A stretch of 64,000 bases of DNA. Source: Escherichia phage ime. How positions within the stretch are numbered: position 1 is the stretch's first letter; each line of letters starts with the position of its first letter. The stretch lies in sequence record MN850576.1; one strand, written 5' to 3'. The notes beneath the pieces are model-generated. The model had not been told where the DNA came from, searched no databases, and saw only the letters and a list, made by a program, of their open reading frames with translations. Positions 761 through 17,906 of the stretch are shown piece after piece. Both the position numbers and the translations under genes were made by a program.

Positions 761-798
761 AAGTACTTGGCACATCTCAATCTGAAAGGAGTCCCAAC

Positions 799-1587: not shown

Positions 1588-1631
1588 TACAGAAGGGTGG
1601 TTATTCCACCCTTAAATATCTAAAACAGTTG

Positions 1632-1660
1632 TTGACAAATAGGCAAGCTTTAGATATTAT
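1632..1660 (+). promoter_or_regulatory. sigma70-like promoter (TTGACA-17-TATTAT)
   Basis: TTGACA 1632-1637, TATTAT 1655-1660. Confidence 0.45.
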
Positions 1661-1688
1661 TATCGGACAAAACAAAGAGAAGGACAGT

Positions 1689-2000
1689 ATGGCTACAATA
1701 CAAGAGAAACTGAATAAAATATACTGCCTATTTGTCTATAACGGTGAGACAATTTTGGCAAATAAAGGATCCAAGAATGTGTGGACCAAGGACAGCGGTG
1801 GTAATATAATCAACTTAGCGTTGCTACGTGAGCGCCGACACAGATTCTTTATCGAGTCTCGAATTATTGAAAGCAGCACTTGCTACAGAACAGGCGATAA
1901 AGTAATTGTTGACAATGATACGTGGTATGTGGTAGATTGGCAATCATTGAGTTGTGATGCTTCTGACAATCGTAAGTACTCCATAGTGATTGCTAAATAA
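1689..2000 (+). CDS. hypothetical protein
   Basis: Internal ATG of track ORF 1566..2000 placed after promoter, with AGAAGGA RBS. Confidence 0.45.
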   Translation: MATIQEKLNKIYCLFVYNGETILANKGSKNVWTKDSGGNIINLALLRERRHRFFIESRIIESSTCYRTGDKVIVDNDTWYVVDWQSLSCDASDNRKYSIVIAK

Positions 2001-2060
2001 AGGTAAATGTGAATCAGGTTTAAATAAATAGCTTTCAACTTCCAATATTAAGGATTTCTC

Positions 2061-3110
2061 ATGAATTTAACACCTCGCAGCACCATGGTACACGGCATGA
2101 AAGAAAAACAGAACGGTTTCGAACCTATGAGTAATAAAATGTTTGGTATGCCGGGCGGTATCATGGAAACATACAGCTACCCAACACCTGTTGTTGACCA
2201 CGTTCTTTATATCGACGATTTGGAGGACCTGCAGGATCATATGTCTCGTCTGCAGACGATCCGTATGGCTCAGCCGGAAGAAAGCATTCGTGTGATCATC
2301 AATAGCCCTGGTGGTTGCGTGCACATTGCAATGGCCTATCTGCAGGCATTCCGCGAGTCTCAGGCAAGCGTTGTTGCACATGCTGAAGGGATGTGCTGCT
2401 CTGCTGGAACAATCTTATGGCTTGGTTGCAAAGAACGTACTGTGGCTCCGGACACAGAATTTATGTTCCACTACTATCAAGGTGGCACTTATGGTAACGG
2501 TGTTAACATGAATACTCAGGTCAGCTACTGGAAAAAACGTTTTGAACACCTGATCGAAAAATACTACGGTGGGGTGCTGACAGAAGATGAGATAGCATCC
2601 ATCACAGCTGGTGGCGAAGTGTGGTTGGACGGAGAAGAGTTGGCAGCACGCACTGGAGCTATTATTCTGGATGAAGGCAACATACAACGCATCCAGAACG
2701 GACAAAAACCGAAAAAGCTTCTGGCAAAAGGTGATGAAGAAGGCGTGTTAGGTGAAGCAGGTCTTCCGGAGATTCATCAGTGCACATCTTTAGATGAGTT
2801 AGTTCATGCTGTTGAATCTGCAAAAGCGGGTGGTTCGAAAGGTGATGTTCACACTGTGTTCCTGAATCTGCAGATGGAAAGTGGCGAGACCGTCCGAATT
2901 GCCCTGGGTGAGATTACTTCAGAAGATCTGCAGAGATTCTCTGTCGTTGAACTTCAGGATATTCTGTCTCAATTGAAGACTACTCTGAACGGCGGTGAAG
3001 AGGTTAAGGTGAAAGATAAGACTCGCAAGCGTCTTGTGGACAATATTATTAAAACAGCAAAAGAGCTCAATGAAAAAATCCTGGGTGCAGGAATTGTCGA
3101 AGAAGCTTAA
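2061..3110 (+). CDS. ClpP-family (S14) serine peptidase with C-terminal extension
   Basis: ClpP-like core INSPGG...AEGMCCSAG...FMFHY. Confidence 0.65.
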   Translation: MNLTPRSTMVHGMKEKQNGFEPMSNKMFGMPGGIMETYSYPTPVVDHVLYIDDLEDLQDHMSRLQTIRMAQPEESIRVIINSPGGCVHIAMAYLQAFRESQASVVAHAEGMCCSAGTILWLGCKERTVAPDTEFMFHYYQGGTYGNGVNMNTQVSYWKKRFEHLIEKYYGGVLTEDEIASITAGGEVWLDGEELAARTGAIILDEGNIQRIQNGQKPKKLLAKGDEEGVLGEAGLPEIHQCTSLDELVHAVESAKAGGSKGDVHTVFLNLQMESGETVRIALGEITSEDLQRFSVVELQDILSQLKTTLNGGEEVKVKDKTRKRLVDNIIKTAKELNEKILGAGIVEEA

Positions 3111-3123
3111 ACATTAATTCTAA

Positions 3124-3146
3124 AGCCCTCTTCGGAGGGCTTTTAT
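3124..3146 (+). terminator. rho-independent terminator
   Basis: AGCCCTC-TTCG-GAGGGCT stem-loop followed by TTTTAT. Confidence 0.6.
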
Positions 3147-3161
3147 GATCTGGAGATTTGC

Positions 3162-3695
3162 ATGACTTGTGCTAGAAAACCTGATGAACAACGTAACGCC
3201 TACGATGAGTATGTGACACCGGAGTGGTGTGCAGAAGGGCTGTATGACCTTATTCCGTTCCCAGAAGACTGGACCTACTTAGAGCCTTGCAGGAATAGTG
3301 CCTCAGGTGTGTTCTACTCCCGTATGCCGTTAGGATCTGCATGGGGAGAAATCCAAGAAGGTGTTGACTATCTGAATACAGAATACAACCATGTTGACTG
3401 TATTATCACCAACCCGCCGTACAGCCTGGCTCGTGAGTTTGTGGACAAGGCGTTGAAAGATGCCGACGTAGTTATTATGCTTTTGCGTCTTAATTTTCTG
3501 GAAAGCAAGGCCAGATTTGAATGGTGGCTTGATAATGCACCTACCACTGTGATCACAATATCTAAGCGTCCGTCATTCCAATCTAATGGTAGAACGGATG
3601 GGCAGGCATATGCATATTTTGTATGGGACAAGAAAAACCGTCTAGACTTGCCGCCATTTATGTGGTTGGCACCACCAGAGGCAGACTTGAAATGA
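3162..3695 (+). CDS. small DNA N6-adenine methyltransferase (phage Dam-like)
   Basis: NPPY catalytic motif (DCIITNPPYS); 177 aa; GGAG RBS. Confidence 0.6.
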   Translation: MTCARKPDEQRNAYDEYVTPEWCAEGLYDLIPFPEDWTYLEPCRNSASGVFYSRMPLGSAWGEIQEGVDYLNTEYNHVDCIITNPPYSLAREFVDKALKDADVVIMLLRLNFLESKARFEWWLDNAPTTVITISKRPSFQSNGRTDGQAYAYFVWDKKNRLDLPPFMWLAPPEADLK

Positions 3696-3976
3696 AAATG
3701 AGTGCTAAGGACAAGTTGCACCAGTTAGCGCTAAAACGTCCTGTAACGCTTCCTGACGAGCTTAACTCTATTTATGATGCGATTGTTGGGGAGATACAAA
3801 ATAAAGCGTTAGCAGGCTTTCTGGGATGTGGATTTTCGATAAATCTCCCATCACACCTCTCAGACTACTTCCCACACATTGTTGGGGATTTGAGGGCAGG
3901 AGGTCTGCAGGTGGATGTTGTTGGCATCTCTCCGGAGAAAAATAACACAGTTGCCTACTTGACAGTGACCTGGTAG
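3692..3976 (+). CDS. hypothetical protein
   Basis: Internal ATG of track ORF 3623..3976; overlaps upstream stop. Confidence 0.4.
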   Translation: MKMSAKDKLHQLALKRPVTLPDELNSIYDAIVGEIQNKALAGFLGCGFSINLPSHLSDYFPHIVGDLRAGGLQVDVVGISPEKNNTVAYLTVTW

Positions 3977-4011
3977 TAGTGTATTTTGTTTTCAACAAGA
4001 GGGGGCCATTT

Positions 4012-4251
4012 ATGTACAAGTCATTCTCAATCTACTCAAGACAGGCGAAACACTACACAGAGATCCTGATCACTCAGAAAAAGTCTGTAGAAGGTGAGTG
4101 GGAGTATCACCATAAAATGTTGCGTCCAGATTGGGTTTTTGATAGACTTATTGCTATGATCCCTCTTGGAGAAGTATACCCTCTGACAGGTCATAGGGAT
4201 GCTTGGGATTTAATTGATTACATAGATTCATTTAAGGAGCCTAGATTATGA
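4012..4251 (+). CDS. hypothetical protein
   Basis: Internal ATG of track ORF 3979..4251 with AGAGGGGG RBS. Confidence 0.4.
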   Translation: MYKSFSIYSRQAKHYTEILITQKKSVEGEWEYHHKMLRPDWVFDRLIAMIPLGEVYPLTGHRDAWDLIDYIDSFKEPRL

Positions 4252-4646
4252 AGATTGAGATTACTAAAGAAGGTAAGAAAGTGTCCGGCAACTATGCAAC
4301 AGTAATTCGGGATTTAATGTTTGAAGCCACCAAGATCGGTACATCTAAAGTTGGTCAAACTGTTAGTGTGAAAAGTAATATCGCCACAGGAGAGAAGGTA
4401 TTCATTGTGGTCAAAGGGCAGGATCCCGTGGAAGGAACAGTGGGCCGAGGTGGCTACCTGTGCATTTCTGAAGAGCCGCGTATGTTAGTGGCTGACGCTA
4501 CTATGGGTGGGAAACGTGTGTGCGAGGCGGATGAGGTAATGATTATCCAACCTGTTGATCCAGATGACCCAGCAACTTGGGTGGTAGGAAATGAAATCTT
4601 CTCTTTAGAAGAGTTATCCTTCCCAGCACCGCGCTCTGTTCAGTAA
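4248..4646 (+). CDS. hypothetical protein
   Basis: ORF track; TAAGGAG RBS; ATGA start/stop overlap. Confidence 0.5.
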   Translation: MKIEITKEGKKVSGNYATVIRDLMFEATKIGTSKVGQTVSVKSNIATGEKVFIVVKGQDPVEGTVGRGGYLCISEEPRMLVADATMGGKRVCEADEVMIIQPVDPDDPATWVVGNEIFSLEELSFPAPRSVQ

Positions 4647-4683
4647 TAATTTATCTTACCAGGGACGGTAGGTAGGAGGTAGC

Positions 4684-4917
4684 ATGAAAGTTAAATTTCT
4701 TACAGATTTAGGGTACCCTTCCTTGGTTGACTGTGTTGGTAAAATTGTGGAAGCAAAACGGCTATCTGCAAACGAGAATGTTGTCCTGGTTAAAGGGAAT
4801 GATTTACTAGCTGCAGGTGCAGAGTCTGGCAGGATCTCTCCTGATTATATGTATTACCTATCTTTAAGTAATCTGCCAGAGCGAGGCGGTAAAGGCCTTG
4901 AAGTTGTGGAGGAGTGA
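4684..4917 (+). CDS. small protein, paralog family A (MKVKxL ... KGxDLxxAGA ... EVVEE)
   Basis: TAGGAGG RBS; shared motifs with 8329, 8546, 10418, 10686 ORFs. Confidence 0.5.
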   Translation: MKVKFLTDLGYPSLVDCVGKIVEAKRLSANENVVLVKGNDLLAAGAESGRISPDYMYYLSLSNLPERGGKGLEVVEE

Positions 4918-4922
4918 CAGGT

Positions 4923-5447
4923 ATGCTTCTGATTAACTGGGAAGACCTCTATGGGGACAAAGACCCTGTTGCGTTTGTTGATCGTAGGTGGAGATATACT
5001 GAAGAACAACTGGCGGCAAAAAATTTAACTGCAAAACGCAGAAAGATCATCCAGTGCAAGTACAAATACGCACAGTTCGCTGCAAAAGTGTCTCCACAAA
5101 TCGAGAGCTTTGTGCTTAAATTGTATGACGAGTACCTCAAATTCAAATTGGATTTTGTGCAGGTGTACCGTGCACAGGTACGACCAGATACCAACATATG
5201 TAGATGGAAGGTTGTTTGTGAAGGTAAAGATTTGCCGCTCAGCTTGACAATTGAGTGGCGTTATGGGTATCATGAGTGTGGTCTGTATGATATTTGGGAT
5301 GTCATTGTAGATCCTGCTAAGCATCTGAACACAGAGGAGCTGGAATATATCAATAAGGTTATTCTCGATATGTTTTTCAGCTACACACATGAAAACTCTG
5401 AGAAAGAACGGGATAATTTTCTTGACACCCTCAGCGACCATTTGTAG
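4923..5447 (+). CDS. hypothetical protein
   Basis: ATG 4923 with GGAGGAG RBS (track ORF begins at GTG 4914). Confidence 0.55.
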   Translation: MLLINWEDLYGDKDPVAFVDRRWRYTEEQLAAKNLTAKRRKIIQCKYKYAQFAAKVSPQIESFVLKLYDEYLKFKLDFVQVYRAQVRPDTNICRWKVVCEGKDLPLSLTIEWRYGYHECGLYDIWDVIVDPAKHLNTEELEYINKVILDMFFSYTHENSEKERDNFLDTLSDHL

Positions 5448-5477
5448 TGTACAATTTAACCTACAAAGGGAGGACCA

Positions 5478-5705
5478 ATGAGTATAAATGTTGTGCTAAT
5501 AGCTTACCTGGTAATGTCCGTTATAACAGCGGTATTCTTGACAGGTGTATGCATCGTGTCCAGACGAAGGGTGAAGTTTGATGATTTTATCACCATCATC
5601 ACTGCTGCACCTTTTTGGCCTGTTGTTATCTTCATCGTAATAATGTGCCTAGTTGATTACTACAAGAATATCAGGAAGGAGAGTAGGGATGGAGACCGCA
5701 CCTAA
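5478..5705 (+). CDS. small membrane protein
   Basis: AAGGGAGG RBS; hydrophobic segments. Confidence 0.5.
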   Translation: MSINVVLIAYLVMSVITAVFLTGVCIVSRRRVKFDDFITIITAAPFWPVVIFIVIMCLVDYYKNIRKESRDGDRT

Positions 5706-5841
5706 AACTATCTATACTGTTCTTAAAGAGATTGCGTTCTACGCAGATCTTAGCCAGGCACCTTTATGGGAAAAGAGCATGTATTTAAAATGGTGCGTTA
5801 ATTTAGGGAGACCTTCCAGTGTTTCAAGCCATGTTTATTGA
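5689..5841 (+). CDS. hypothetical small protein
   Basis: Internal ATG of track ORF 5653..5841 with GGAAGGAG RBS. Confidence 0.3.
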   Translation: METAPKTIYTVLKEIAFYADLSQAPLWEKSMYLKWCVNLGRPSSVSSHVY

Positions 5842-5906
5842 GATGCTATCTGGGATATTGTTACTGGTAGCCATCTTAGGTGGTGCAGTTCTGATGTATA
5901 ACTATC

Positions 5907-6110
5907 TTGAAAAAGGAGACAGCAATGGCAAAAAATAAATCTTTAGAGCAGGCTGAAAACCTTCTCCACGAGCTGGTAAAGGAGTGGAAAGTTGAATACT
6001 CAGATTTTAATGCACGAGAGGGTGAAGATTATTGGCCTACGGAGCGCTCAGAGGGCGAATGGTATCAAGATTTCATAGAGTGGTTATATCAGACGTGCGA
6101 TGAGGGGTGA
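5907..6110 (+). CDS. hypothetical protein
   Basis: AAAAAGGAG RBS. Confidence 0.45.
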   Translation: MKKETAMAKNKSLEQAENLLHELVKEWKVEYSDFNAREGEDYWPTERSEGEWYQDFIEWLYQTCDEG

Positions 6111-6112
6111 CG

Positions 6113-6568
6113 ATGTTTGTTAAATATGTAAAAACGTGCCTCAACAATCTTGGTAGAGAGCATTGGTACACCTTGCTTGAAAAAGGAGAAATTTTAACAA
6201 AATCTGGAAAGATAACTTTAATACCCTTGGACGATAAAGACCCGTCACTACTTATCATAGATGATTACGTTACAGGTGTGTCGTACGAGGTCTCTGTGGA
6301 GAGGTTAATACGCAGATCTGGAGGTCCTTATGACCGAAGAGAGTATGTTTTCGATTCTATTACAGAGAAGGAAGATCCGTCTCTAATGTTTAGGATGGTA
6401 ATCAGGGATATGAAATCATCTATAAATAGGATCGTAAAGGACATTAAGGAACCTTTTAGAGTAAAAGTTAAGAAGTTTTTCGATTCTAAGATTAACATAC
6501 TCGCCGTTGCACTAGGTGTAGTTCAACTTCTGTTAATTTTGCACTATTTTGGACTACTATTTAAGTAG
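6113..6568 (+). CDS. hypothetical protein with C-terminal hydrophobic segment
   Basis: ATG 6113 after GAGGGGTG. Confidence 0.5.
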   Translation: MFVKYVKTCLNNLGREHWYTLLEKGEILTKSGKITLIPLDDKDPSLLIIDDYVTGVSYEVSVERLIRRSGGPYDRREYVFDSITEKEDPSLMFRMVIRDMKSSINRIVKDIKEPFRVKVKKFFDSKINILAVALGVVQLLLILHYFGLLFK

Positions 6569-6630
6569 TGGTTGAGATATGGCACAAAGGATGTGCCATA
6601 GTGAAATAAACTAAGAAAGAGGTAGAGAGA

Positions 6631-6978
6631 ATGCCAAAGATTAAAACGTTATTAATGTGGGTAGCTGTTTTAGCTTTTATAGGGTACTGGACTTGGGAAA
6701 CTGAATTAAAAGATATCGGATATACCAGTCTTGAGAGCAAGGCGTGCATTGGTATAACCGATGCATTCAGGCAAAATGCTATGGATCACGAATGTGTCGA
6801 TGCAGACATAGATGATAAACTGTCTAAGGACAAAGACTTCTACCACGGGTATGCTTTGCTTGACAGTGGGGACACTGTAGAGTTCTGGTCGTGGTTTCGT
6901 GAAGATGGAACAATAAAAACAGCAGTAAAAATCTCCAACAAAGAGTTAATGCTGTTGCAGCAGAAGGAGGTTCAATGA
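6631..6978 (+). CDS. hypothetical protein with N-terminal hydrophobic/signal segment
   Basis: AAGAAAGAGG RBS. Confidence 0.5.
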   Translation: MPKIKTLLMWVAVLAFIGYWTWETELKDIGYTSLESKACIGITDAFRQNAMDHECVDADIDDKLSKDKDFYHGYALLDSGDTVEFWSWFREDGTIKTAVKISNKELMLLQQKEVQ

Positions 6979-7262
6979 TCTGGATATCCTATGCGGATGG
7001 CACCATGCTGTATACTGCGGGTACCCGATACGAAGTTCAGGAGAACGATAAAAAATTTATCGTAAGAACATTTGACAAGGACGACAACCTTTTGCTAGAA
7101 TTGACTTACAAGGTTGGAGAGGTATCCAATATCCAATTGGATTGTGGTCATAAAGATAACCCACTCAAAAAACCTGGAATAGGCAAGGCTTCAGAAGAAC
7201 GTTTGTCTCGTATTGCAGAAAGCGTTTCTACACAAAAATCTAAGAAGGGGACTAGAAAATGA
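6975..7262 (+). CDS. hypothetical protein
   Basis: AGAAGGAGG RBS; ATGA overlap. Confidence 0.5.
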   Translation: MIWISYADGTMLYTAGTRYEVQENDKKFIVRTFDKDDNLLLELTYKVGEVSNIQLDCGHKDNPLKKPGIGKASEERLSRIAESVSTQKSKKGTRK

Positions 7263-7453
7263 AAAACTTACGTTTTAACACTTATTACTACAACACATTG
7301 AATGATTTGTATTATATTGTTCGAAGTAAAAGTCCTGAAACAGTCCTATTCTGCCGCGAACCTTTCAAAGGGGAGGAAGTAGAGTCTGAGATGAATGTTA
7401 GCCAGATCACCTCTTTGTTGCTCTCAGGTGCAATGGAAGAAGCAATATTCTAA
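7259..7453 (+). CDS. hypothetical protein
   Basis: ORF track; overlap coupling. Confidence 0.45.
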   Translation: MKNLRFNTYYYNTLNDLYYIVRSKSPETVLFCREPFKGEEVESEMNVSQITSLLLSGAMEEAIF

Positions 7454-7470
7454 ACCAGGCGGGGGGTTTT

Positions 7471-7656
7471 ATGAAGCACTATTGCCTGTCTGGTAGAATG
7501 GGTGCAGATTGTGATTGGGTTTTCTTAAAACTTGTCAGCATTCGAGAGTTCATCCCAGAGGAAGAGCAAGAAAGCGAGCTGATGTCATGGATCAACCATT
7601 ACGGTAACACTTTTCGGCATGTTAAGGTAGAAGAGTTGCCAAGCGAGGCTGATTGA
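7471..7656 (+). CDS. hypothetical protein
   Basis: ORF track; G-rich RBS. Confidence 0.45.
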   Translation: MKHYCLSGRMGADCDWVFLKLVSIREFIPEEEQESELMSWINHYGNTFRHVKVEELPSEAD

Positions 7657-7658
7657 CT

Positions 7659-7748
7659 ATGATTGCATCAATATTAACGTTTATGGGTGGCGTGGCATTC
7701 GGATTCATTGTTTGCCTGTTTATAGTGATTATGTCTATGCGAGGCTGA
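7659..7748 (+). CDS. small hydrophobic peptide (29 aa), below track cutoff
   Basis: ATG 2 nt after upstream stop; hand-translated MIASILTFMGGVAFGFIVCLFIVIMSMRG. Confidence 0.3.
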   Translation: MIASILTFMGGVAFGFIVCLFIVIMSMRG

Positions 7749-7751
7749 ATT

Positions 7752-8048
7752 ATGAAACTTTTTGAGTGGTTTAAAAAGTTTAAATATAAAGCTGTAGCCA
7801 TCGTGCCGTGGTCCATTCAGTGGGTTGATGAAGGTGGTCTACCGATACCTGGTGACAAAGATACTGGGTACTGGATTATGATGGAGAACGGGTTTGGAAA
7901 GCGAAAGTATACGTGCACAAACTCTACTCGATCTGCACTTAATAGAGTTCCTGGTTACAAACTTATGGTTGTGTGGAAAATGTCAGGCGTGCCTCCAGCC
8001 AATGCTCAATTTCTTACTGACAATCCGACCACGGTAGAGGGAGATTGA
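7752..8048 (+). CDS. hypothetical protein
   Basis: ORF track. Confidence 0.5.
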   Translation: MKLFEWFKKFKYKAVAIVPWSIQWVDEGGLPIPGDKDTGYWIMMENGFGKRKYTCTNSTRSALNRVPGYKLMVVWKMSGVPPANAQFLTDNPTTVEGD

Positions 8049-8050
8049 TA

Positions 8051-8332
8051 ATGAAAAAGATTAACAGTAGTGAAGTAGAGTTTAAACTTGTCGGAAAAGG
8101 CACTTACTGGGAAGTTCGTCAAAAGGTATATTTGTTCGGTATTATTCCCTACTGGTCTAAATTCTACTGGGGAGCTAACGAGTGGGGAAGATACGCCACC
8201 AAATCAATGGCACTTATTGGTATAGCAGAGTACATTGCAGCCCGAGATAGGGTTGGAACCACTTATTACTACACTGCTGACGATATTCGTAACAGTGTTT
8301 ACATCCCACAACCGCCTGAGGGAGACCGTTGA
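8051..8332 (+). CDS. hypothetical protein
   Basis: ATG 8051 (track ORF starts at TTG 8045). Confidence 0.5.
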   Translation: MKKINSSEVEFKLVGKGTYWEVRQKVYLFGIIPYWSKFYWGANEWGRYATKSMALIGIAEYIAARDRVGTTYYYTADDIRNSVYIPQPPEGDR

Positions 8333-8556
8333 TGAAAGTTAAAGTTTTAGATTCAAGCTTCTATATTGGTCAGGAGCCCTTAGTGGGGAAAGTGTTTACC
8401 GCTATCCCTAACGAAGATTATCCTGACCTTTTAAAAATAAAAGGTGCAGATCTTATTTCCGCTGGTGCATCTCAGGACTGCTTTGACAGCCAGTGGACCT
8501 ACAACTTTGCCCTTGGTGAGGATGTAGAGATAGTGGAGGACGAGAATGAAGGTTAA
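8329..8556 (+). CDS. small protein, paralog family A
   Basis: MMKVKVLD...KGADLISAGA motif. Confidence 0.5.
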   Translation: MMKVKVLDSSFYIGQEPLVGKVFTAIPNEDYPDLLKIKGADLISAGASQDCFDSQWTYNFALGEDVEIVEDENEG

Positions 8557-8800
8557 AATTCTTGATTCTAACGTCTACTTGGGACAATCCTTCCTGAAGG
8601 GAAAGGTCGTTCCTGCGGTATACTTTGAAGGGTTGCCGTGGGATGATCCTGTGCGGCAACATCGCAGTTATGTAGGCCACAACGTGGTGTTTATCTTGGG
8701 ATCAGACCTGATCGCTGCTGGTGCACCGGAATATTATTTCGGGGAAGAATCCTATTATGCCTTTGGGGCAGGGTCAGATGCAGAGATTGTAGAGCTGTGA
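8546..8800 (+). CDS. small protein, paralog family A
   Basis: MKVKILD...GSDLIAAGA...EIVEL. Confidence 0.5.
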   Translation: MKVKILDSNVYLGQSFLKGKVVPAVYFEGLPWDDPVRQHRSYVGHNVVFILGSDLIAAGAPEYYFGEESYYAFGAGSDAEIVEL

Positions 8801-8812
8801 TGGGTAACCGTT

Positions 8813-9211
8813 GTGAAAAATAAACTGTTCAAAGTTACAATGAAAATTCGCGGAGCTTGGAGCGTAAAGCAAGGGCGTATCCCAGAATTTGAGAAAGACT
8901 TCTACGTAGTCTCCACCTCGGAGGAGGCTGCATGCTGGCAGGCTGGCTATGCATATGCAAGAACCTGGTACGAAGGATACCAGACTGGTGGCTATGACGG
9001 AGAAATTATCAGCAAGGGTGTAGAAGAAATTAATGTGTTGACAAGTGAAAAAGTTTTTGTTATAGTGCATCCAGATTCCAGAGTGAAGCATTACTGGAAT
9101 GCCAGAACAAAAACTTGGACACCGTTTGCAGATTCTGCTACACCACTTTTAAACCAGAAAGCTCTTGACTCTGTCCCGAGCTATGGGGTTGTTGAAGAAA
9201 AGCTAAACTGA
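8813..9211 (+). CDS. hypothetical protein (paralog of 11018..11413)
   Basis: Shared FVxxHPxSxxxYW...WTP motif. Confidence 0.5.
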   Translation: MKNKLFKVTMKIRGAWSVKQGRIPEFEKDFYVVSTSEEAACWQAGYAYARTWYEGYQTGGYDGEIISKGVEEINVLTSEKVFVIVHPDSRVKHYWNARTKTWTPFADSATPLLNQKALDSVPSYGVVEEKLN

Positions 9212-9228
9212 AACGGTGAGGTACTAAC

Positions 9229-9519
9229 ATGATTGATTTAGTTCTAGACACTGATAACACCGGAGCGTTTAAAAAGGATGGTGTAACAAGCGTTGACCAA
9301 TCATTCCCTGCCAAGATTGACTCAAAATGGACCTACAAGTTTGATGGAGAGATCTTCGCAAATGATGAGAAGGTTGTAGATGCTGCAGCCATTTTGAACG
9401 CTCTAGGGTACGACCCTGTGAATTCTTTGATCAAGGATCCTGTTGAGTTTGCAGAGTATGTTCGAAAAATGGCAGATCTTGCTGTGGATATTTTAAAAAC
9501 TATCGACAACAATCTGTAA
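9229..9519 (+). CDS. hypothetical protein
   Basis: ORF track; GAGG RBS. Confidence 0.5.
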   Translation: MIDLVLDTDNTGAFKKDGVTSVDQSFPAKIDSKWTYKFDGEIFANDEKVVDAAAILNALGYDPVNSLIKDPVEFAEYVRKMADLAVDILKTIDNNL

Positions 9520-9525
9520 AAACTG

Positions 9526-9554
9526 TTGACACAACGCTTCAGATTTAGTATCAT
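9526..9554 (+). promoter_or_regulatory. sigma70-like promoter (TTGACA-17-TATCAT)
   Basis: TTGACA 9526-9531, TATCAT 9549-9554, upstream of HPF gene. Confidence 0.5.
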
Positions 9555-9601
9555 TGTTTTCAAAGAGGGTTTGGTTCCCTCTTCTTTAAAAGGAACACGT
9601 T

Positions 9602-9919
9602 ATGCAAATTGAAATCACTGGCAACGTAGAAATCACTGAAGGTATGGTGTCTTTCATTTCCCACAAAATGTCTAAGCTGGAGCGTTTGCATCCCTCTGCC
9701 AACTATGCACGTGTGAGTGTAAAAGTTGAAAATGATCACCAGGAAGTTATGGCGTTCATTTTTGACAATTCTGGAAAAGAAGTTATTGCCAAAGCTAAAG
9801 GCAGTGATGCTTACGAGGCAACTGACCGTATGGTAGATGTTGCAGCACGTCAACTGGCTAAATGCGGTGGAAAGAAAGGTAAGGGGAAAGGCAAAGTAAA
9901 GATTGACTTTGGAGAATGA
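9602..9919 (+). CDS. hpf: ribosome hibernation promoting factor / RaiA-family protein (short form)
   Basis: MQIEITGNVEITEGM...KLERL...ARQLAK closely parallels E. coli HPF MQLNITGNNVEITEAL...KLEQY...ARQLTK (recalled). Confidence 0.75.
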   Translation: MQIEITGNVEITEGMVSFISHKMSKLERLHPSANYARVSVKVENDHQEVMAFIFDNSGKEVIAKAKGSDAYEATDRMVDVAARQLAKCGGKKGKGKGKVKIDFGE

Positions 9920-9928
9920 GGTGCTACA

Positions 9929-10030
9929 ATGGGTGTGATCAAGAAATTAGTCCCAAATGTAGAGATTGCATGCTTTGAAATTATGTTTGCAATCGCAGTT
10001 GTAGTTAATGTGTTAGGTTACGGCTATTAA
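9929..10030 (+). CDS. small hydrophobic protein (33 aa), below track cutoff
   Basis: ATG 9929 with GGAGAATGAGGTG RBS; hand-translated. Confidence 0.3.
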   Translation: MGVIKKLVPNVEIACFEIMFAIAVVVNVLGYGY

Positions 10031-10056
10031 TATCAAATAATTGAGGAGACCTCTAA

Positions 10057-10326
10057 ATGAAAATTAAATTATTCAAAACTGAGCTGGCAGACAAAAACTG
10101 TGGACTGGTTGAAGGTATGATTGTCGAAGCACAACCAGTTGACTATATGAAGGTGGTTCGTGATGCCCTGGGTGAAGGTTTTGATCTGATGGAGCCAGCT
10201 CTGCGAGAAGATGTTATCGAGATGGCTAAAAAGCACACACCTGAAGGCATGGTGGTGTTTGTTGCACCGGGTAACGGAGAAGAGTTGATTGTAACTCCGG
10301 ATGTGTATGAGATTGTAGAGGAATAA
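10057..10326 (+). CDS. small acidic protein (family A-related, ...EIVEE)
   Basis: GAGGAGA RBS. Confidence 0.5.
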   Translation: MKIKLFKTELADKNCGLVEGMIVEAQPVDYMKVVRDALGEGFDLMEPALREDVIEMAKKHTPEGMVVFVAPGNGEELIVTPDVYEIVEE

Positions 10327-10417
10327 TCCTGCTTGGATTAGCATACTTCCTCGATAAGGAAGGTTTGTAATTATTTGTGGGAAAGGAATCCCAATCTCTT
10401 ACCAGAGGTGATACTAT

Positions 10418-10681
10418 ATGATTGTTTATTTTAAAACTTCAGGTGGATACCCTGATTCTCAAAGCTTGATCGGAAAAACGTGCACAGCATACTCACCTCT
10501 TGATGAGGAGGTAGGCGATATTCTACGAAATATGTATCGGATTGATCCTCAAGAAGCTTTTGATCAAAACCTTGTATTTGTCAAGGGCTCAGACATGAAG
10601 TCTTTGGGAGCATTCCCTGAAGCAGATGATGATGCCGTTTATTCGTTCATGACCCCTTTTGAAGCTATGGTTGTTGGGTGA
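10418..10681 (+). CDS. small protein, paralog family A
   Basis: LVFVKGSDMKSLGA motif. Confidence 0.5.
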   Translation: MIVYFKTSGGYPDSQSLIGKTCTAYSPLDEEVGDILRNMYRIDPQEAFDQNLVFVKGSDMKSLGAFPEADDDAVYSFMTPFEAMVVG

Positions 10682-10685
10682 TAAT

Positions 10686-11018
10686 ATGAAAGTACGCTTT
10701 ATTGGTGAAACAATTCCTGTGCATCTCCGGTCGCCTGAGGATTCTGCAGATCTTGCATCTCAAAAGGCGAGAGGTTATGATAAGAAAGTAACCTCAACTG
10801 ATGTAGTGCTTGAGGCTACTAGTCTACCTGACCCTGCTGCATTCTTTAATCATTATGGGTACTATTTCAGCAATCTGATGAATATCGGTGAGCTTGTGTT
10901 TATTAGTGGTGGAGAGATTGTTAGCAAGCTTGGCGGCGATCCGGATGTCTTTCATGAAACCTGTCCTTTTGCATTTGTGGTAGGTTCAGATGTGGAAGTT
11001 ATTGAGGAGGTGCGGTAA
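10686..11018 (+). CDS. small protein, paralog family A
   Basis: MKVRFIGE...VVGSDVEVIEE; ATG 10686. Confidence 0.5.
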   Translation: MKVRFIGETIPVHLRSPEDSADLASQKARGYDKKVTSTDVVLEATSLPDPAAFFNHYGYYFSNLMNIGELVFISGGEIVSKLGGDPDVFHETCPFAFVVGSDVEVIEEVR

Positions 11019-11413
11019 TGGTAAGCCTATACCGTGTTGAGTATAGCTCAGATACTGTATACAACGTAAGAAGCAAAGATCGCAGCGACAGAGTGCAAGA
11101 AATGTATGTTCTTGCCGACAGTCCGTTATCTGCAGCGTTCAAGGCAGGGGCTCTTGCATCTCGTTGGAAATTTGAAGGCGGATCTTTCTATGAAGAAACC
11201 CTTGAAGATTCTGTTGTTATTTCTTCTGTAGAGGTTTCAGATGACTACGAAGGGAAAAAGTTCGTAATGCGGCACCCACACAGCAACATTGCGTACTACT
11301 GGGATGTTCTGAACAACGAGTGGACCCCAGATCTTCAGAAGGCTACTGTGCTAACACCGTTTTTGGCAGATAAGTTCCCACCAGAAGGTAATTTATCCGC
11401 ACTGTTTCAGTAA
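11018..11413 (+). CDS. hypothetical protein (paralog of 8813..9211)
   Basis: Shared HPxSNIAYYWD...WTP motif. Confidence 0.5.
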   Translation: MVSLYRVEYSSDTVYNVRSKDRSDRVQEMYVLADSPLSAAFKAGALASRWKFEGGSFYEETLEDSVVISSVEVSDDYEGKKFVMRHPHSNIAYYWDVLNNEWTPDLQKATVLTPFLADKFPPEGNLSALFQ

Positions 11414-11492
11414 TTTTCTTGCACACAGGTGTTGACAACGCCAACCCTGTGTGAAATAATACCTTCATCTTAACAAGACAGGAGACCGATTG

Positions 11493-11750
11493 ATGAAGAT
11501 TAAATTGAAAAACCTTGAAACGGCAGAGATTCAGGACGGTGTTGATTTCCGTTCTAAAGATGGTGACATCTTAGAGGTAAATATTCCAACCTACGAGCTG
11601 ATTAAAGGTTTTGGCAACGTTCCGGAAGAGGATATTACAGAAATTCTTATGATGTTGATTCTTGACGGAACTGTGTTTGTAGGTGAAGGTGAGAACGCTA
11701 TTGCAATCCCAGGCCATTTTTATGAAGTAGTTGACGAAGAGGTGCTGTAA
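11493..11750 (+). CDS. small acidic protein (family A-related)
   Basis: ATG 11493 with AGGAGA RBS. Confidence 0.5.
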   Translation: MKIKLKNLETAEIQDGVDFRSKDGDILEVNIPTYELIKGFGNVPEEDITEILMMLILDGTVFVGEGENAIAIPGHFYEVVDEEVL

Positions 11751-12101
11751 ATGAAAGTAGAAATTACCGGTTTTGATGTGAATGTGGTTCCGGAAGATAT
11801 TTTAGCTAAACTTCCAGAAGGTTTTGGTAACGGCGTTGTGGTGGATGCTGTTCCTCCTACCAAAGACATTCTGCTGCAGTATGGTGTAGCAGAGGAAGAT
11901 GTCGATAAAGTTCTTACAATGATGGCAATCGATCGTGTTGTCGTTGTTAAAGGTCTCGATAATTTTGAGAGTGATCCCCTGATTATTCGTGGAGATGACT
12001 ACAAAATCATCGATAATGAAGGCCAAGAGTTCTATGAACCTTGTGCAGAAGATATTCTTAACTTATTACTGGAAGCAGGCACCGAAGAGGAGGACGAATA
12101 A
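11751..12101 (+). CDS. small highly acidic protein
   Basis: ORF track; abutting upstream stop. Confidence 0.5.
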   Translation: MKVEITGFDVNVVPEDILAKLPEGFGNGVVVDAVPPTKDILLQYGVAEEDVDKVLTMMAIDRVVVVKGLDNFESDPLIIRGDDYKIIDNEGQEFYEPCAEDILNLLLEAGTEEEDE

Positions 12102-12430
12102 TGAAGATTGACCCGTTACTGAAGGCTCGTGCAGAAAAAGCGTACACTATTAAGCTGACTAATCTGGTTCCTACTTGTCATCCGGATGTAGGTTGGCCCG
12201 AAGGTCTGGTAGAGGGAACTGTAACAGCTGCATACCTTCCTAACATCAAGTACCTTATGGAGATCTTAGAGATGGATGAGGAAACTGCAGAACAGTTCCA
12301 GTTAGATATGAAACAGAGTGGGACTCTGGTTATTCACGGGTGGTATAATACTAAAGATGCAGAAGACCCTCTGGTAACTTCTAATCTGGCATATGAAATC
12401 TTAGGGCCTTTGAACCTGGAGGAAGACTAA
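12101..12430 (+). CDS. small acidic protein
   Basis: ORF track; TAATG overlap. Confidence 0.5.
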   Translation: MKIDPLLKARAEKAYTIKLTNLVPTCHPDVGWPEGLVEGTVTAAYLPNIKYLMEILEMDEETAEQFQLDMKQSGTLVIHGWYNTKDAEDPLVTSNLAYEILGPLNLEED

Positions 12431-12717
12431 TGAAAGATCTGGTTAAGATTAAGATTAAAGATACCAATGGAGAACTCAGCCATTTTGGAATTAATGATGG
12501 TGACGAGCTGATCGCACACCTGCCTACTAAGGAGGTTGTAAGCAAAGCAGTTGCCGGAGAAGAAGCTGCAATGCAGGCTGCAGGTGTGGATGAAAACTAT
12601 GTAGCTATGTGCATGTGCCGAGATCAGGTTGTTCTGTATAAAGCGTATCGACCAAACGGAGCCACGGAGTGGCTTGTATTCCGACCCGAAGGATATGAAA
12701 TCTTAGAGGCACTATGA
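12430..12717 (+). CDS. hypothetical protein
   Basis: ORF track; TAATG overlap. Confidence 0.5.
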   Translation: MKDLVKIKIKDTNGELSHFGINDGDELIAHLPTKEVVSKAVAGEEAAMQAAGVDENYVAMCMCRDQVVLYKAYRPNGATEWLVFRPEGYEILEAL

Positions 12718-12806
12718 TAAATCTTGCCAAGGTTGCAACGGCACTGTTAATTATTTGCTGGTCTGTAACCTTAACACTGTGTCTTGTATTTCAGTGAGGT
12801 GCTTGT

Positions 12807-13070
12807 ATGAACATCCTGATGTGGGTTATAGCAGTGGCGTTTGTTGCATGTTTTTGCTGCTGGGTTGCGGTGAGGATTTCTGTAGCTACCCTTCGGAAGT
12901 TGGGGTTCTCAGAATGGGATATTAATATCCTTTCTTTTCGCAATGAAACAATCTCAGCCGCCCTGCTTTGTAAGAAATTCAAGTGGGAACCTTGTGAGGT
13001 CATGAGCTATCTAAGAACAGGCGATATCCCTGAAAGATTTAAAAAAGTTCTTGACGGCAAGGATAAATGA
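12807..13070 (+). CDS. small membrane protein
   Basis: ORF track; hydrophobic N-terminus. Confidence 0.45.
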   Translation: MNILMWVIAVAFVACFCCWVAVRISVATLRKLGFSEWDINILSFRNETISAALLCKKFKWEPCEVMSYLRTGDIPERFKKVLDGKDK

Positions 13071-13225
13071 CAGTATAGTGACTAACAAGAGGTGAGGAGT
13101 GACTGATTTTACTGAAGCTTTAATGATGGCCTTGTCTGTTTTAGCGCTATCGGTGTGTTTTGGGGCGTTATTCACATCTCTGGTTAAAGTTTTACATACA
13201 GTATTATTACCCAAGGAGCGCAGTA

Positions 13226-13477
13226 ATGACGAAGATTGACTTGAATGCTGGCGACCATGTTGTTGTCAAATGCATCGGAGATTATCTTGGATTCACAATC
13301 GGTAATACTTACGAGGCGGTAGTGGCGAAGGTTTATCATGATAAAGTCCTCAGTCTTGTATTTGACTGCGATGATGATGGAGATGACCGATACGTCTGTG
13401 AGGTGCTGGCACGAGACGACAGTGAAGACCAGAAATTCTTGGTTATTGAACTGAACGGTATTTTTGTAGAACGTTAA
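13226..13477 (+). CDS. hypothetical protein
   Basis: ATG 13226 with CAAGGAG RBS. Confidence 0.45.
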   Translation: MTKIDLNAGDHVVVKCIGDYLGFTIGNTYEAVVAKVYHDKVLSLVFDCDDDGDDRYVCEVLARDDSEDQKFLVIELNGIFVER

Positions 13478-13505
13478 TTTAAAACAACATAAGGGGACTC
13501 TTACT

Positions 13506-13811
13506 ATGGCTAAATCTAAAGTTGAACTGTTCACCTCTCTTCCTTCTGACACTGCAGAGCGTGATCGCCTTCGCAAGACAATCGAAGAACTGGTGGAACT
13601 CCAACTTCAGATTAAAGATCTGAAAGATGCCATTAAGGATATCATTCTCGTTGAGAAGCAGGATCACCTGTATTCTCCTAAATTCATCAAATCTCTGGTG
13701 GCTACCGAGTTCGATATTCGCTATGAGGCTGAAAAACGTCGAGCTAAAATCGAAGAAGAGGTTGAGCACATGTCCGAGGCAGACATTCTGTTCAAACGCT
13801 CTGTAGAATAA
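13506..13811 (+). CDS. hypothetical coiled-coil protein
   Basis: TAAGGGGA RBS. Confidence 0.5.
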   Translation: MAKSKVELFTSLPSDTAERDRLRKTIEELVELQLQIKDLKDAIKDIILVEKQDHLYSPKFIKSLVATEFDIRYEAEKRRAKIEEEVEHMSEADILFKRSVE

Positions 13812-13820
13812 TGACAAAAA

Positions 13821-13845
13821 GAGGGGCCCAAGCCCCTCTTTTTAC
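13821..13845 (+). terminator. rho-independent terminator
   Basis: GAGGGGC-CCAA-GCCCCTC followed by TTTTT. Confidence 0.6.
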
Positions 13846-13866
13846 TATCTATGAAGGAGATTTGAG

Positions 13867-14199
13867 ATGGGTATACCGATCACTGTAAAAGAATTGAATG
13901 AACGTGATGCAGGTGGTCTATGGCCTGCACGAAAAATACGCTGCATCCGTATGAAAGAGAACCTTGAGCATCTTGAGCAACAGAAACGGATTGAGGTTGG
14001 TGATATTTTCGAAGTATTTTATTCTGATCGCCGTAACTGGGAAACCATTCAACCTTCCGGTTTTGTTCTTGCTAAGCTTGACACTGGAGAAGTGATTGTT
14101 CCTGGGTTGGATATTGTCTTCGAAATTATCCAGGAGTGGGATCCGGACAAGATTAGATACGAAGAGCTATTCGGTGAAGGTATTATCAAACCTGTGTGA
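13867..14199 (+). CDS. hypothetical protein
   Basis: AAGGAGA RBS. Confidence 0.5.
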   Translation: MGIPITVKELNERDAGGLWPARKIRCIRMKENLEHLEQQKRIEVGDIFEVFYSDRRNWETIQPSGFVLAKLDTGEVIVPGLDIVFEIIQEWDPDKIRYEELFGEGIIKPV

Positions 14200-14207
14200 G
14201 GTGGATT

Positions 14208-14507
14208 ATGTCTACAAAGGCGGCTAAATACTCCTACATGCCATCAACCTCTGCAGAGGTAGACTTTAGTTTCGATGTGTTTCCACTGTTTGAGGTGGTT
14301 CTGGCATACCCAACAATACTATCTACTCCTGAATCACTTGTGCCTGTTAAGTTGCAGAACGCTATGCATTCCATGCACTACAACAACAAATGTAGGCACA
14401 GATGGTGTCAGGACGAGGAAAAAGATTTGGATAGTTTGAGAGATTTTGACAGTCACCTTTTGACACCTTTCAGCTACTCCAACCTTGATAAGCCCTCGTG
14501 GGTATAG
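14208..14507 (+). CDS. hypothetical protein
   Basis: ATG 14208 after GAGGTGG. Confidence 0.45.
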   Translation: MSTKAAKYSYMPSTSAEVDFSFDVFPLFEVVLAYPTILSTPESLVPVKLQNAMHSMHYNNKCRHRWCQDEEKDLDSLRDFDSHLLTPFSYSNLDKPSWV

Positions 14508-14531
14508 CAAAATATCAAATTTAAGACACCT

Positions 14532-14558
14532 AGGACGCTCTGTGGCGTCCTTTTCTTT
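14532..14558 (+). terminator. rho-independent terminator
   Basis: AGGACGC-TCTGTG-GCGTCCT followed by TTTCTTT. Confidence 0.6.
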
Positions 14559-14720
14559 ATCTGGTGCACGATTGCATACCTTGGGCAGTTAATCTCATTA
14601 CAGAGCGTTTAAGAGCTCCCTACAAACAACTCCATATTTCGAGCGTAGCGAGAACGCACGTCCGTTTTGACCCAAATCACCATACGCTCGGATTTTAACC
14701 AAACCCTCGCGGCGTTTCTG

Positions 14721-14749
14721 TTGACACATTACCGATCCAGTGATAGTAT
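14721..14749 (+). promoter_or_regulatory. sigma70-like promoter (TTGACA-17-TAGTAT)
   Basis: Consensus -35 and near-consensus -10. Confidence 0.5.
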
Positions 14750-14867
14750 CCACACATAGTTTGTAGAATATGGAGTACACAATGAGAACATTGTCCGAAG
14801 TTTTAGTGGTGATCCTGATGATCATTACGTCCATAGCGGCTGTTGCCGGAATACTCACGGGTGGAAC

Positions 14868-15080
14868 ATGATAAACACACATGCATCTGAAGAGACATCC
14901 AAAGGAGTGACTATATGTCCCTTGGCTGAGCCAGTGAAAGAGGAAAACTTAGATTCTGAAGATTCTCCATCTTCGCTCCAGGTAGATCCTGAGGCTGATG
15001 ACCTAACGTGGGAAGACATCGTAGATATCTGGTTCTCTATTATGCCTGAGCACGAAGAGTTCAGGGGTGGTAGACTATGA
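14868..15080 (+). CDS. small highly acidic protein
   Basis: ORF track; D/E-rich; start context weak. Confidence 0.35.
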   Translation: MINTHASEETSKGVTICPLAEPVKEENLDSEDSPSSLQVDPEADDLTWEDIVDIWFSIMPEHEEFRGGRL

Positions 15081-15201
15081 AGCACCGAGCCCACACAGGT
15101 TCCTCATGCTAAAGCATGGCCTGAAGAGGCAAACGTGCATAATTCCTGTGCATCGGAACGTATAAAACCCTGTTCACACTCTCATTTCCAGAGGAGATTT
15201 C

Positions 15202-15417
15202 ATGAAGATAGAAATATTTGGTGGAGCTGACAACACTCGTGGCCTGATTTACCTTGAATTCGATGAATCATACCTGCCAGAGGTGTTAAATATGGACTCT
15301 GTTGCTGATGCTTTGGGAGTAAGTCCTAAAGATCTCTACTCTGGTGCTGAGATTGATGGTTGGGAGGAGACCATGAACATTGATTTCAGTGAAGTAGGTG
15401 ATGAACCACTGGACTGA
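15202..15417 (+). CDS. small acidic protein (family A-related)
   Basis: GAGGAGA RBS. Confidence 0.5.
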   Translation: MKIEIFGGADNTRGLIYLEFDESYLPEVLNMDSVADALGVSPKDLYSGAEIDGWEETMNIDFSEVGDEPLD

Positions 15418-15546
15418 CACACAATTAGCTGCCAGGCTAAAGTGCTGGAAGCGCACCTATAACACATCTTTCAACTAAATTTCCTACCACCACAATCACT
15501 TACCTCCCACACATGACTGTTTGCTTGTTTAGTGAGCAGTCATGCC

Positions 15547-15574
15547 TTGACATTCTTGCCTATCCTGATAAAAT
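15547..15574 (+). promoter_or_regulatory. sigma70-like promoter reading into ORF-free region
   Basis: TTGACA 15547-15552, TAAAAT 15569-15574; no ORF of 60 aa or more for ~2 kb downstream. Confidence 0.4.
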
Positions 15575-16992
15575 TAAGTTCTTCTCTTTTCTTTTACCGA
15601 GTAATTCGGGTTTTCTGTTCTCTTCGGTTTGAAGGGGTATGGAGATACACCTGAGTGAACAGGGTGAACAACCGAACCATTGGCTATGGCATTAGCATGG
15701 CGAAGCGGACGGGTGACGAAAGAGGGGCCGGAGGACACCAGTCACTGCCATATGGTATATGGGTGATAACCTGAAGAGTCTGAATAAGTGTTTAAGTACC
15801 AGTCAGAGGAAAAGGTGAATGGTAGCCGAAGGGGGAGGGGGGTTTCTTGTATCTTTAATTTGTATATTATGTATACACTTGTAAACCAATCTCATCTGAA
15901 TCTGTTTACCACACAAAGCGGATAGAGACAAATATCACCTATTAAACTTGAATTATTTATAGAAAATACCACAACACCACTTAAGTCTTTGATTTTACAC
16001 ACAAATCCTACAGATATTCAACCTCCATATTTAACATACTTGTAACATATTCCATACTCTACCTGTCTGATCAATCTACCCAACCACATCCTTCATATTT
16101 TCCCTGTCTGTACCACCCCTGCCCCGCCGGGAGTCCCGTCATATCTGGCTTTCCAGTAAATAGCACACCCACAAATATCATTGCCTGAAGAGGGTTTCAT
16201 CCCATAATACATGCCTTACCTGAAGAGCGCTTCATACACCACGTAAATTTTTTAATTGACCTGCAATTTTCCCGTCATGACCCCCCCCCTGCCCCGCCGG
16301 AGAGGTTGGCTTTTCCCACACAGACCTGAAGAGTCAGCCAGAAATATCTGAACAGGTCCAGTTCTGCCTTGTCATGAGCCGTAGCGACTGGAGTGCTGCC
16401 AGGCGGACGGAATGGGAATACTTCTCATTCTTATAATAATTCTCAAATATCGAGGCAGTGAGGCAAATTAATAGGTGAGGCCGTTCACACAGTGGCACAA
16501 CATTTGCAATCTATTTTGTGAGGGTGAATGAGAATACCTATCATTGTGAGAACCTTTATCATTACGGGCAATTTAACATAATACCCATTATGCGCACCAC
16601 TGGCGATACATACAGGGATTGATACCATGAGTTACAGTTTACGCATATAACAATCATATTTCTTACTATTTGTGTGGGATATAGTTAGCAACCAATAGAT
16701 TAGATATTGACCTACAGACTTCCAACCGTCTAGACGTCTAAACGCCCACACACCAAGGGTTATACATACATTACTGAATGTAAACAGGGCCGCAAAAATG
16801 CTACCATACCAGTTTGTAAATTTTTCATGCAGCACTTGACAAAGAGGAGAAAAACTTGTCTGACATAATGTGACCTAACTGACACAACATGACACTTTTA
16901 CACACCTATTAGTTTACACACTGGATTGTTTACATTCCTGATTGTTCACATGCTAACCATTTACATGATTGACTGTTTACACACCGATAATC

Positions 16993-17244
16993 AGCCATGC
17001 CATTCGTTTGCATGACAATAATTATACATGACAATAATCGCACTGATTATAATTAGCATGACATAATATAAAAGCAGGGCAACTATTAGCAGATCTATAG
17101 TTGCCTTGCTTGTTATGTCATGATTAACTAAATACAAGGCAACTATGATCTGATTAATAGTTTGCAGACAAACTATCACGGGGGTGATGGTTACTGCTTT
17201 TATATTATGTCGCGACTCCGTCGCGCCATGCCATTCGTTTGCAT
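16993..17244. repeat. 20-bp direct repeats (GCCATGCCATTCGTTTGCAT) flanking nested inverted repeats; candidate ori/pac
   Basis: Direct repeats at ~16993-17012 and 17225-17244; inverted-repeat arms 17060-17077/17194-17211; palindrome GGCAACTAT-N10-ATAGTTGCC 17078-17105; ATAGTTTG-CAGA-CAAACTAT 17157-17176. Confidence 0.6.
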
Positions 17245-17859
17245 AGTTGCCTTATTGTTACAGATAAAATAATTGTATTGTTAATTATTTCTTATCTTTC
17301 TATTAGTCATCTAATGATTTCAGTTAATATAGTAACGTACAGTAAACATTAGACGACTAAAGATTTCTCTGCTTATGGTAACCTAACGTGACAATTCCAG
17401 ACTGTTTACGAAAAATGTTGACACCTGGGCCGATTTATGTTATGCAGTTTACACGAATAATTATTTTATGCAGGTATTGACTATTCCGTTATTCTATGGT
17501 TGGAATAAATGCTTAGCAGGCTATAGAATGGCGAGCGTACGTAAATTCTGAGATCTGGCGGCTATAGTTATACTCGATTTTTCACGTAGAAAACGCTTTT
17601 GTAGCTATGTAAGTGTATGACTTATAAAGATTTTTAGTTGTTGACAAGATATTGGAGATGTGCATCAGATTAAATTTTGTGCAATAGCTACATTACGTGC
17701 ACTTTTGGAAGAAAAAACGTGTAAAAATGGCCCTGCTACCACACAATGAAAGATTATGCAATAGTTATTTTATATGTATATTTGTACAGTGTGTGGGATT
17801 AATGGCTAGTCAATTATTCCACTTGCCAGGTAGGGCCGTTTATGGTAGGAGAAGAGCAG

Positions 17860-17888
17860 ACAAAAAGAAAGGGGCCTTTAAGCCCCTT
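17860..17888 (-). terminator. rho-independent terminator (minus strand)
   Basis: GGGGC stem-loop; on minus strand followed by TTCTTTTTGT. Confidence 0.55.
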
Positions 17889-17906
17889 GATAATTCAGTT
17901 AAGAAA

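Follow-up and report, generated by a model that had tools for sequence, protein, structure and literature searches.

The gene at positions 9602..9919 on the plus strand of the window, that is, of the whole stretch of 64,000 nucleotides of Escherichia phage ime DNA analysed (MN850576.1), belongs with near certainty to the ribosome hibernation factor (HPF/RaiA) family. In the list of open reading frames it has an ATG start and 105 aa followed by a stop codon; the Shine-Dalgarno sequence AAGGA (9590..9594, plus strand), read from the letters, lies 7 nt 5' of the ATG and is invariant in the alignment. The gene is the orthologue of gp139/ORF144 of phage rV5. The explanation that accounts best for the observations, and that we favour with moderate confidence, is that gp139 is a Vequintavirus short HPF-type factor binding idle host ribosomes weakly or transiently. 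Counted against it are the outcome of the expression of the rV5 protein from pBAD (PMC6375957), the replacement of several contact residues, and scores far below the equivalog cutoffs.

The family assignment is carried by profile HMMs. The 105-aa protein matches Pfam PF02482 (Ribosomal_S30AE; Sigma 54 modulation protein / S30EA) over residues 3-88 with 48.3 bits (E=1.8e-12), the curated gathering cutoff being 23.7 bits, and TIGR00741 (yfiA; HPF/YfiA family) with 45.9 bits, above the cutoff of 40.9 bits. The initial annotation had placed the protein in the HPF/RaiA family and had named an HMM search as the check, with the lack of any significant hit as the adverse outcome; a significant match was found instead, both family thresholds were passed, and the predicted fold superposes on solved HPFs. 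The end motifs on which that reading had relied also hold in alignment with E. coli HPF, MQIEITG-NVEITE being aligned with MQLNITGNNVEITE and ARQLAK with ARQLTK. A sequence comparison with solved structures ranked E. coli HPF entries first (2rql, 4v8h, 6h4n; E about 5e-12, 41-42% identity). At the level of subfamilies, NCBIfam NF007780 (short HPF equivalog) gave 55.8 bits vs a cutoff of 125, failing as an equivalog match and still being the best-scoring subfamily, and NF007654 (RaiA/YfiA equivalog) also failed, with 17.6 bits vs a cutoff of 158. Judged by these profiles, gp139 can be considered HPF-like and an equivalog of neither HPF nor RaiA.

Long HPFs of the Gram-positive type, about 180-190 aa in length, carry a dimerisation domain at the C-terminus after a linker. 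With its 105 aa the phage protein does not belong to this type, being without that domain; in long HPFs only the N-terminal domain was matched, e.g., residues 10-95 of 8uu4_w (187 aa). The designation as a short form is thereby upheld, and the remark that this form is typical of Gram-negative hosts agrees with its description as a gammaproteobacterial trait (bioRxiv 10.1101/2025.10.07.680626).

In the AF2 model of the protein (mean pLDDT 81) the elements follow the expected beta-alpha-beta-beta-beta-alpha order (E2-7, H13-29, E33-43, E46-55, E60-67, H70-88), which, together with Foldseek, delimits an HPF/YfiA core domain of residues 1-88 (9602..9865, plus strand). Averaged over blocks of 10 residues, pLDDT is 86-93 within residues 1-80 and 78 in residues 81-90. 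V. cholerae HPF (4hei_A) was superposed by Foldseek onto the model with TM 0.82/0.93 and an rmsd of 1.0 A, E. coli HPF on the 100S ribosome (6h4n_x) was matched with 41% identity, and the top 36 PDB matches are all HPF, RaiA or pY proteins; the fold itself is predicted, not solved. Alpha-2 ends at residue 88, where it is interrupted by C88-G-G, and is followed by the C-terminal tail of residues 89-105 (GGKKGKGKGKVKIDFGE; 9866..9916, plus strand), predicted to be disordered, with pLDDT <50 for residues 91-105. The tail had been described as lysine/glycine-rich, and this is so: residues 88-100 read CGGKKGKGKGKVK, and the net charge over residues 89-105 is +4. The C-terminal KxKxKxK pattern of E. 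coli HPF recurs 7 residues later in the phage protein, as K94-G-K-G-K-V-K100, within the segment predicted to be flexible.

All family-invariant residues (K22, D69, Y71, D75) and all near-invariant ones (G7, E43, A63, D79, Q84, K87) are retained. The family contact set checked comprised E. coli K80, R83, K87, and K91 on alpha-2 and T53, H55/E60, and residue 62 on the beta-sheet, with the contacts of Gram-negative HPF and YfiA taken as listed in bioRxiv 10.1101/2025.10.07.680626. Along the basic track of alpha-2 and the beta-sheet patch, R83, K87, K91, and E60 are kept; R83, K87, and E60, as well as E. coli K26 (= phage K25), are rRNA/uS9 contacts of HPF structures. Changed relative to E. coli HPF are K80, T53, H55, Y30, and K89 (K80V, T53F, H55F, Y30L, K89G), which are strictly conserved or strongly interacting contacts in Gram-negative HPF/YfiA (bioRxiv 10.1101/2025.10.07.680626).

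The phage from which the window derives is a Vequintavirus, i.e., an rV5-like coliphage. Over 1.2 kb surrounding the gene its DNA has 99.8% identity with Escherichia phages nomine, WalterGehring, and PMBT16 and 90-99% identity with 117 phage records, all of them Vequintavirus, and the protein is 100% identical to rV5 gp139/ORF144 (YP_002003641, ABI79209). The gene and its promoter were thus already known: the reference annotation of rV5 contains both, and a paper of 2019 described the protein. YP_002003641 is annotated as 'ribosome-associated translation inhibitor RaiA; similar to Klebsiella oxytoca probable sigma(54) modulation protein', and in the rV5 record NC_011041 the site corresponding to 9526-9554 bears the label 'Sigma70-type promoter; P144'. 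Kropinski et al. 2013 reported 33 consensus promoters and proposed a transcription unit of genes 82-163, which includes the HPF gene (PMC3606486). In several GenBank records (MT884008-11, OR0625xx) the HPF gene is misannotated as 'ATP-dependent protease La type I'. The label 'sigma 54 modulation factor' is given in APCEc02, nomine, nomo, ECP32, and other records to the ORF at 10057..10326 (plus strand, 89 aa); this ORF was considered as a second HPF gene and, as it lacks any Pfam match, rejected as a propagated misannotation. The displacement of the label apparently began in APCEc02, where the genuine HPF gene is frameshifted, and spread from there.

In 2019 Mizuno et al. included the rV5 HPF (ABI79209, 105 aa) in their list of virus-encoded ribosomal proteins (PMC6375957). 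When it was expressed from pBAD in E. coli, its peptides were detected in the crude extract and none were found in high-salt-washed 70S/100S ribosomes, and there was no discernible change in 100S formation (PMC6375957). The authors flagged the stringent salt washes and the use of growing cells as possible causes of the negative result, and suggested that the rV5 HPF might compete with host factors (PMC6375957). Later functional work on phage HPF was not found in the literature. The lack of a discernible 100S effect bears directly on the canonical reading, in which the protein would act together with host RMF to convert 70S ribosomes into inactive 100S particles, or would block the A/P-site, as an early shut-off of host translation. 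This reading draws on the fact that both sequence and predicted fold are closest to those of E. coli HPF in the 100S ribosome (6h4n_x), with the HPF model outscoring the RaiA model (55.8 vs 17.6 bits), and nevertheless we regard it as improbable, since in addition to the expression result (PMC6375957) a general translation block would hit phage mRNAs too, and in its length the extended tail is similar to the feature of RaiA that is believed to clash with RMF.

Purifying selection on the gene is strong, the Nei-Gojobori dN/dS values for seven Vequintavirus copies being 0.02-0.11, with dS up to 0.68. It is present in all of the phage records that carry the neighbouring gene (117/117). The phage collection also contains the MG0656xx entries, 18 UNVERIFIED 'Campylobacter phage' (C. 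jejuni) records 97-100% identical to E. coli Vequintaviruses in this region, whose Campylobacter host labels look doubtful. GNNVEIT, the form of E. coli, is found in the group of Murica, nomo, and V18, and the window has GN-VEIT, one residue fewer; the last residues are FGE, FLD or FWD, depending on the copy. Frameshifts in homopolymer runs alter the tail of APCEc02 (+1 G) and Murica (-1 A), and a tail of the APCEc02 type occurs independently in a Logan assembly (P0003). These frameshifts touch only the last roughly 10-15 residues and leave tails that are shorter and still basic; they may be sequencing errors or real, tolerated variants. Their occurrence in two or three lineages (APCEc02, Murica, P0003) is what could be said for a functionless passenger gene of host origin in the course of decay. 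Such a gene is, however, very hard to reconcile with the dN/dS values, by which it is effectively refuted, with the universal presence in the genus and an intact orthologue in a divergent lineage, or with the confinement of the frameshifts to homopolymer runs in the last residues, where sequencing errors are a possible cause; we consider it highly improbable.

The divergent orthologue (P0004) is a protein of 103 aa, 64% identical to that of the window and syntenic with it, encoded on uncultured contigs of about 125-137 kb that match Vequintavirus patchily, at about 77-80% nucleotide identity. It passes Pfam PF02482, and its tail has a different sequence (VKYSKSKGIDKRTAKWDY), of similar length and still basic. 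The contigs L011-L014 (Logan/ENA), 15.7-125.8 kb long (the longest recorded for P0004 is of 136,793 bp), have the gene order of Vequintavirus around the HPF gene and are absent from the phage genome collection searched; they represent an uncultured sister lineage of Vequintavirus. As a word-indexed homologue search had given only five proteins, 1.84 billion cluster representatives were scanned exhaustively with HMMER as well. The scan returned the protein's own cluster and then ordinary cellular HPFs of <=45% identity, the best of which are enterobacterial; no cellular relative of >45% identity was found among the 1.84 billion cluster representatives. The Salmonella HPF contained in the phage collection is 42% identical to the phage protein. 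A further candidate homologue, P0006 (1160 aa, eight matching stretches), was rejected as an unrelated repeat protein. These comparisons agree with an enterobacterial origin and disagree with a transfer that was 'relatively recent', as Mizuno et al. 2019 had suggested (PMC6375957).

The degree of divergence leads to another reading, of a neofunctionalised protein which has ceased to bind ribosomes stably and whose small alpha/beta fold for RNA binding, with the basic tail, serves a different target, e.g., RNA of phage or host or a host factor. The protein is expressed and yet not found on salt-washed ribosomes (PMC6375957), several ribosome-contact residues are lost, the identity to any cellular HPF among the 1.84 billion cluster representatives is 41-45%, which marks it as far diverged, and the strong purifying selection indicates that the protein does something. 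Set against this are the retention of all family-invariant positions and of R83 and K87, and the authors' own caveat that the assay combined stringent salt washes with growing cells (PMC6375957); moreover, no data point to an alternative partner. A new function of this kind is therefore a possibility we take seriously and consider unlikely on balance.

The promoter upstream of the gene (rV5 'P144'; 9526..9554, plus strand) consists of the -35 hexamer TTGACA at 9526-9531, a 17-nt spacer, and the -10 hexamer TATCAT at 9549-9554, and matches 11/12 positions of the sigma70 consensus. Both hexamers are conserved in nine aligned Vequintavirus genomes, A142 having TATTAT, and TTGACA is also found upstream of the orthologue in the divergent lineage (L011). 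In the 64-kb window there are 22 sites with a sigma70 match of at least 11/12, every one with a perfect TTGACA, vs about two expected, i.e., about one per strand in Markov-1 random sequence. All of them are co-oriented with the genes, on the plus strand at 241-15574 and 59408-61904 and on the minus strand at 18375-53155. At the sequence level P144 therefore has the hexamers, the 16-18 nt spacing, the co-orientation, and the conservation expected of a sigma70-dependent promoter. The initial annotation, whose coordinates 9526-9919 span exactly the distance from the -35 hexamer to the stop codon, had given the gene its own sigma70-like promoter, and this proved sound, as the site is a near-consensus match of a class enriched over chance, conserved, and independently annotated in rV5. 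The location in an 'early-gene block', also claimed there, concerns timing, for which the host-type promoters and the gene layout suggest early expression; Vequintavirus transcriptome, 5'-end, expression timing or knockout data were not found in the literature.

Between the promoter and the gene, at the predicted 5' end of the P144 transcript, lies a putative stem-loop, AAGAGGG / 7-nt loop / CCCTCTT (9563..9583, plus strand; MFE about -9.9 kcal/mol). All nine Vequintavirus copies keep some hairpin there (-6.7 to -13.4 kcal/mol), a weaker one in the Murica, V18, and A142 types; the stem shows no compensatory changes among these copies, and the divergent lineage L011 lacks the hairpin. As a regulatory element or terminator the hairpin was rejected: it has z=0.23 vs shuffles, was not called by the terminator scan, and shows no covariation. 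A second promoter-like site, TTGACT, 16 nt, TGcTACAAT (extended -10; 10/12 match + TG), is located at 9903..9930 on the plus strand, its -35 hexamer coinciding with the I-D-F codons in the tail of the HPF gene. It is conserved in the Vequintavirus alignment (Aya has TATAAT), is without annotation in the rV5 record, and has at the equivalent place in L011 a TTTACA-17-TACACT site after the stop codon; the overlap may help to keep this stretch of the tail conserved. As the 33-aa ORF145 has its ATG (9929) inside the -10 of this site, a transcript starting from the site would skip ORF145; this ORF is absent from the divergent lineage L011.

It is also worth mentioning that the window contains at 15420-17900, at the junction of the plus- and minus-strand gene blocks, about 2.5 kb without any ORF of >71 aa, corresponding to the 'non-coding' region noted for rV5 (104013-106618). 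At 16.8-17.8 kb the GC content is as low as 0.33-0.36. Direct and inverted repeats containing GCAACTAT are clustered at 17060-17260, positions 16994 and 17225 carry an exact 20-nt repeat, and a C-rich 18-mer occurs both at 16113 and at 16283. The region could be a replication origin or a regulatory region. Neither tRNA genes nor Rfam families were found in the 64-kb window.

Returning to the favoured reading of gp139 as a weak or transient binder of idle ribosomes, the following course of events can be proposed. Upon DNA entry the gene would be transcribed by the unmodified host RNA polymerase, and hence early. On non-translating ribosomes the protein would occupy, like HPF/RaiA, the region around the A/P-site of the 30S subunit, making contact through its flexible tail rich in Lys and through R83 and K87, both retained in alpha-2. 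Its binding is probably weaker or salt-sensitive, because several of the contact residues of E. coli HPF are replaced, and this would explain its absence from salt-washed ribosomes and reconcile the conservation of the gene with the negative assay of 2019. RMF is not required for short HPF to occupy 70S ribosomes, and the tail of RaiA points toward the RMF site (bioRxiv 10.1101/2025.10.07.680626). The longer tail of gp139 could likewise reach toward the RMF site, and the protein would compete with host HPF, RaiA, and RMF, so that idle ribosomes would be kept as protected, quickly reusable 70S monomers, e.g., in slow-growing gut hosts, rather than forming 100S dimers. Two points led us to propose a RaiA-like outcome instead of the promotion of 100S formation: the gp139 tail exceeds that of HPF in length, and in RaiA the tail runs to the RMF site. 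That gp139 acts on ribosomes at all we hold to be somewhat better supported than the contrary; the modulation of host translation in infection, which the initial annotation had raised, we infer, and the direction of the effect on ribosomes is a guess. A bolder version, put forward tentatively and on present evidence improbable, makes gp139 an anti-hibernation or ribosome-parking factor which, through weak, reversible binding and a tail placed in the RMF / anti-Shine-Dalgarno region, would block the formation of host 100S particles or, more radically, would have acquired a new RNA or protein target off the ribosome. If anti-hibernation were true, the phage would retain access to ribosomes in gut E. 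coli that grow slowly or are in stationary phase.

The value of the present analysis as a discovery is small, as it is preceded by the rV5 annotation and the 2019 paper; what remains of value is the function of a universally retained phage HPF homologue. To the known gene it adds the analysis of selection, the 64% identical orthologue, the scan without a cellular relative of >45% identity, and the contact-residue replacements. The genus comprises phages used for therapy and biocontrol, in which the gene is universal and strongly conserved, and if gp139 manipulates ribosome hibernation, this bears on how virulent phages handle slow-growing hosts.

Of the known systems, rV5 gp139/ORF144 stands nearest, being the same gene in a sibling phage, with a 100% identical protein, the same flanking genes, and the same P144; there is no difference of substance from the window. 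E. coli short HPF (YhbH; PDB 2rql, 6h4n, 6y69) has the fold in common with the phage protein at 41-42% identity, and the two share the N-terminal MQ(L/I)xITGN(N)VEITE, ARQL in alpha-2, R83, and K87. The phage protein differs in being 10 residues longer, in having alpha-2 broken at C88-G-G and followed by the disordered Lys/Gly tail, in the replacement of K80, T53, H55, and Y30, and in the one-residue deletion in GNNVEIT. Unlike E. coli hpf, which is found in the rpoN operon context, the phage gene has its own sigma70-type promoter. E. coli RaiA/YfiA/protein Y (PDB 4v8i, 1n3g) belongs to the same family and has the same fold, and both it and the phage protein extend C-terminally past alpha-2; the solved YfiA/RaiA-type chains are, however, only 21-24% identical to the phage protein in Foldseek, and the phage tail is basic and Gly-rich, whereas that of RaiA is acidic at its end. 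Among other phage-borne proteins, the HPFs of PHROG 8990 are matched weakly (E=1.5e-6 vs 7.5e-71 to the protein's own phrog_12469). The HPF of Cronobacter phage GAP32 is, like gp139, a phage-borne PF02482 protein; it was placed elsewhere in the tree than the rV5 HPF (Mizuno et al., PMC6375957), so that the acquisitions were independent.
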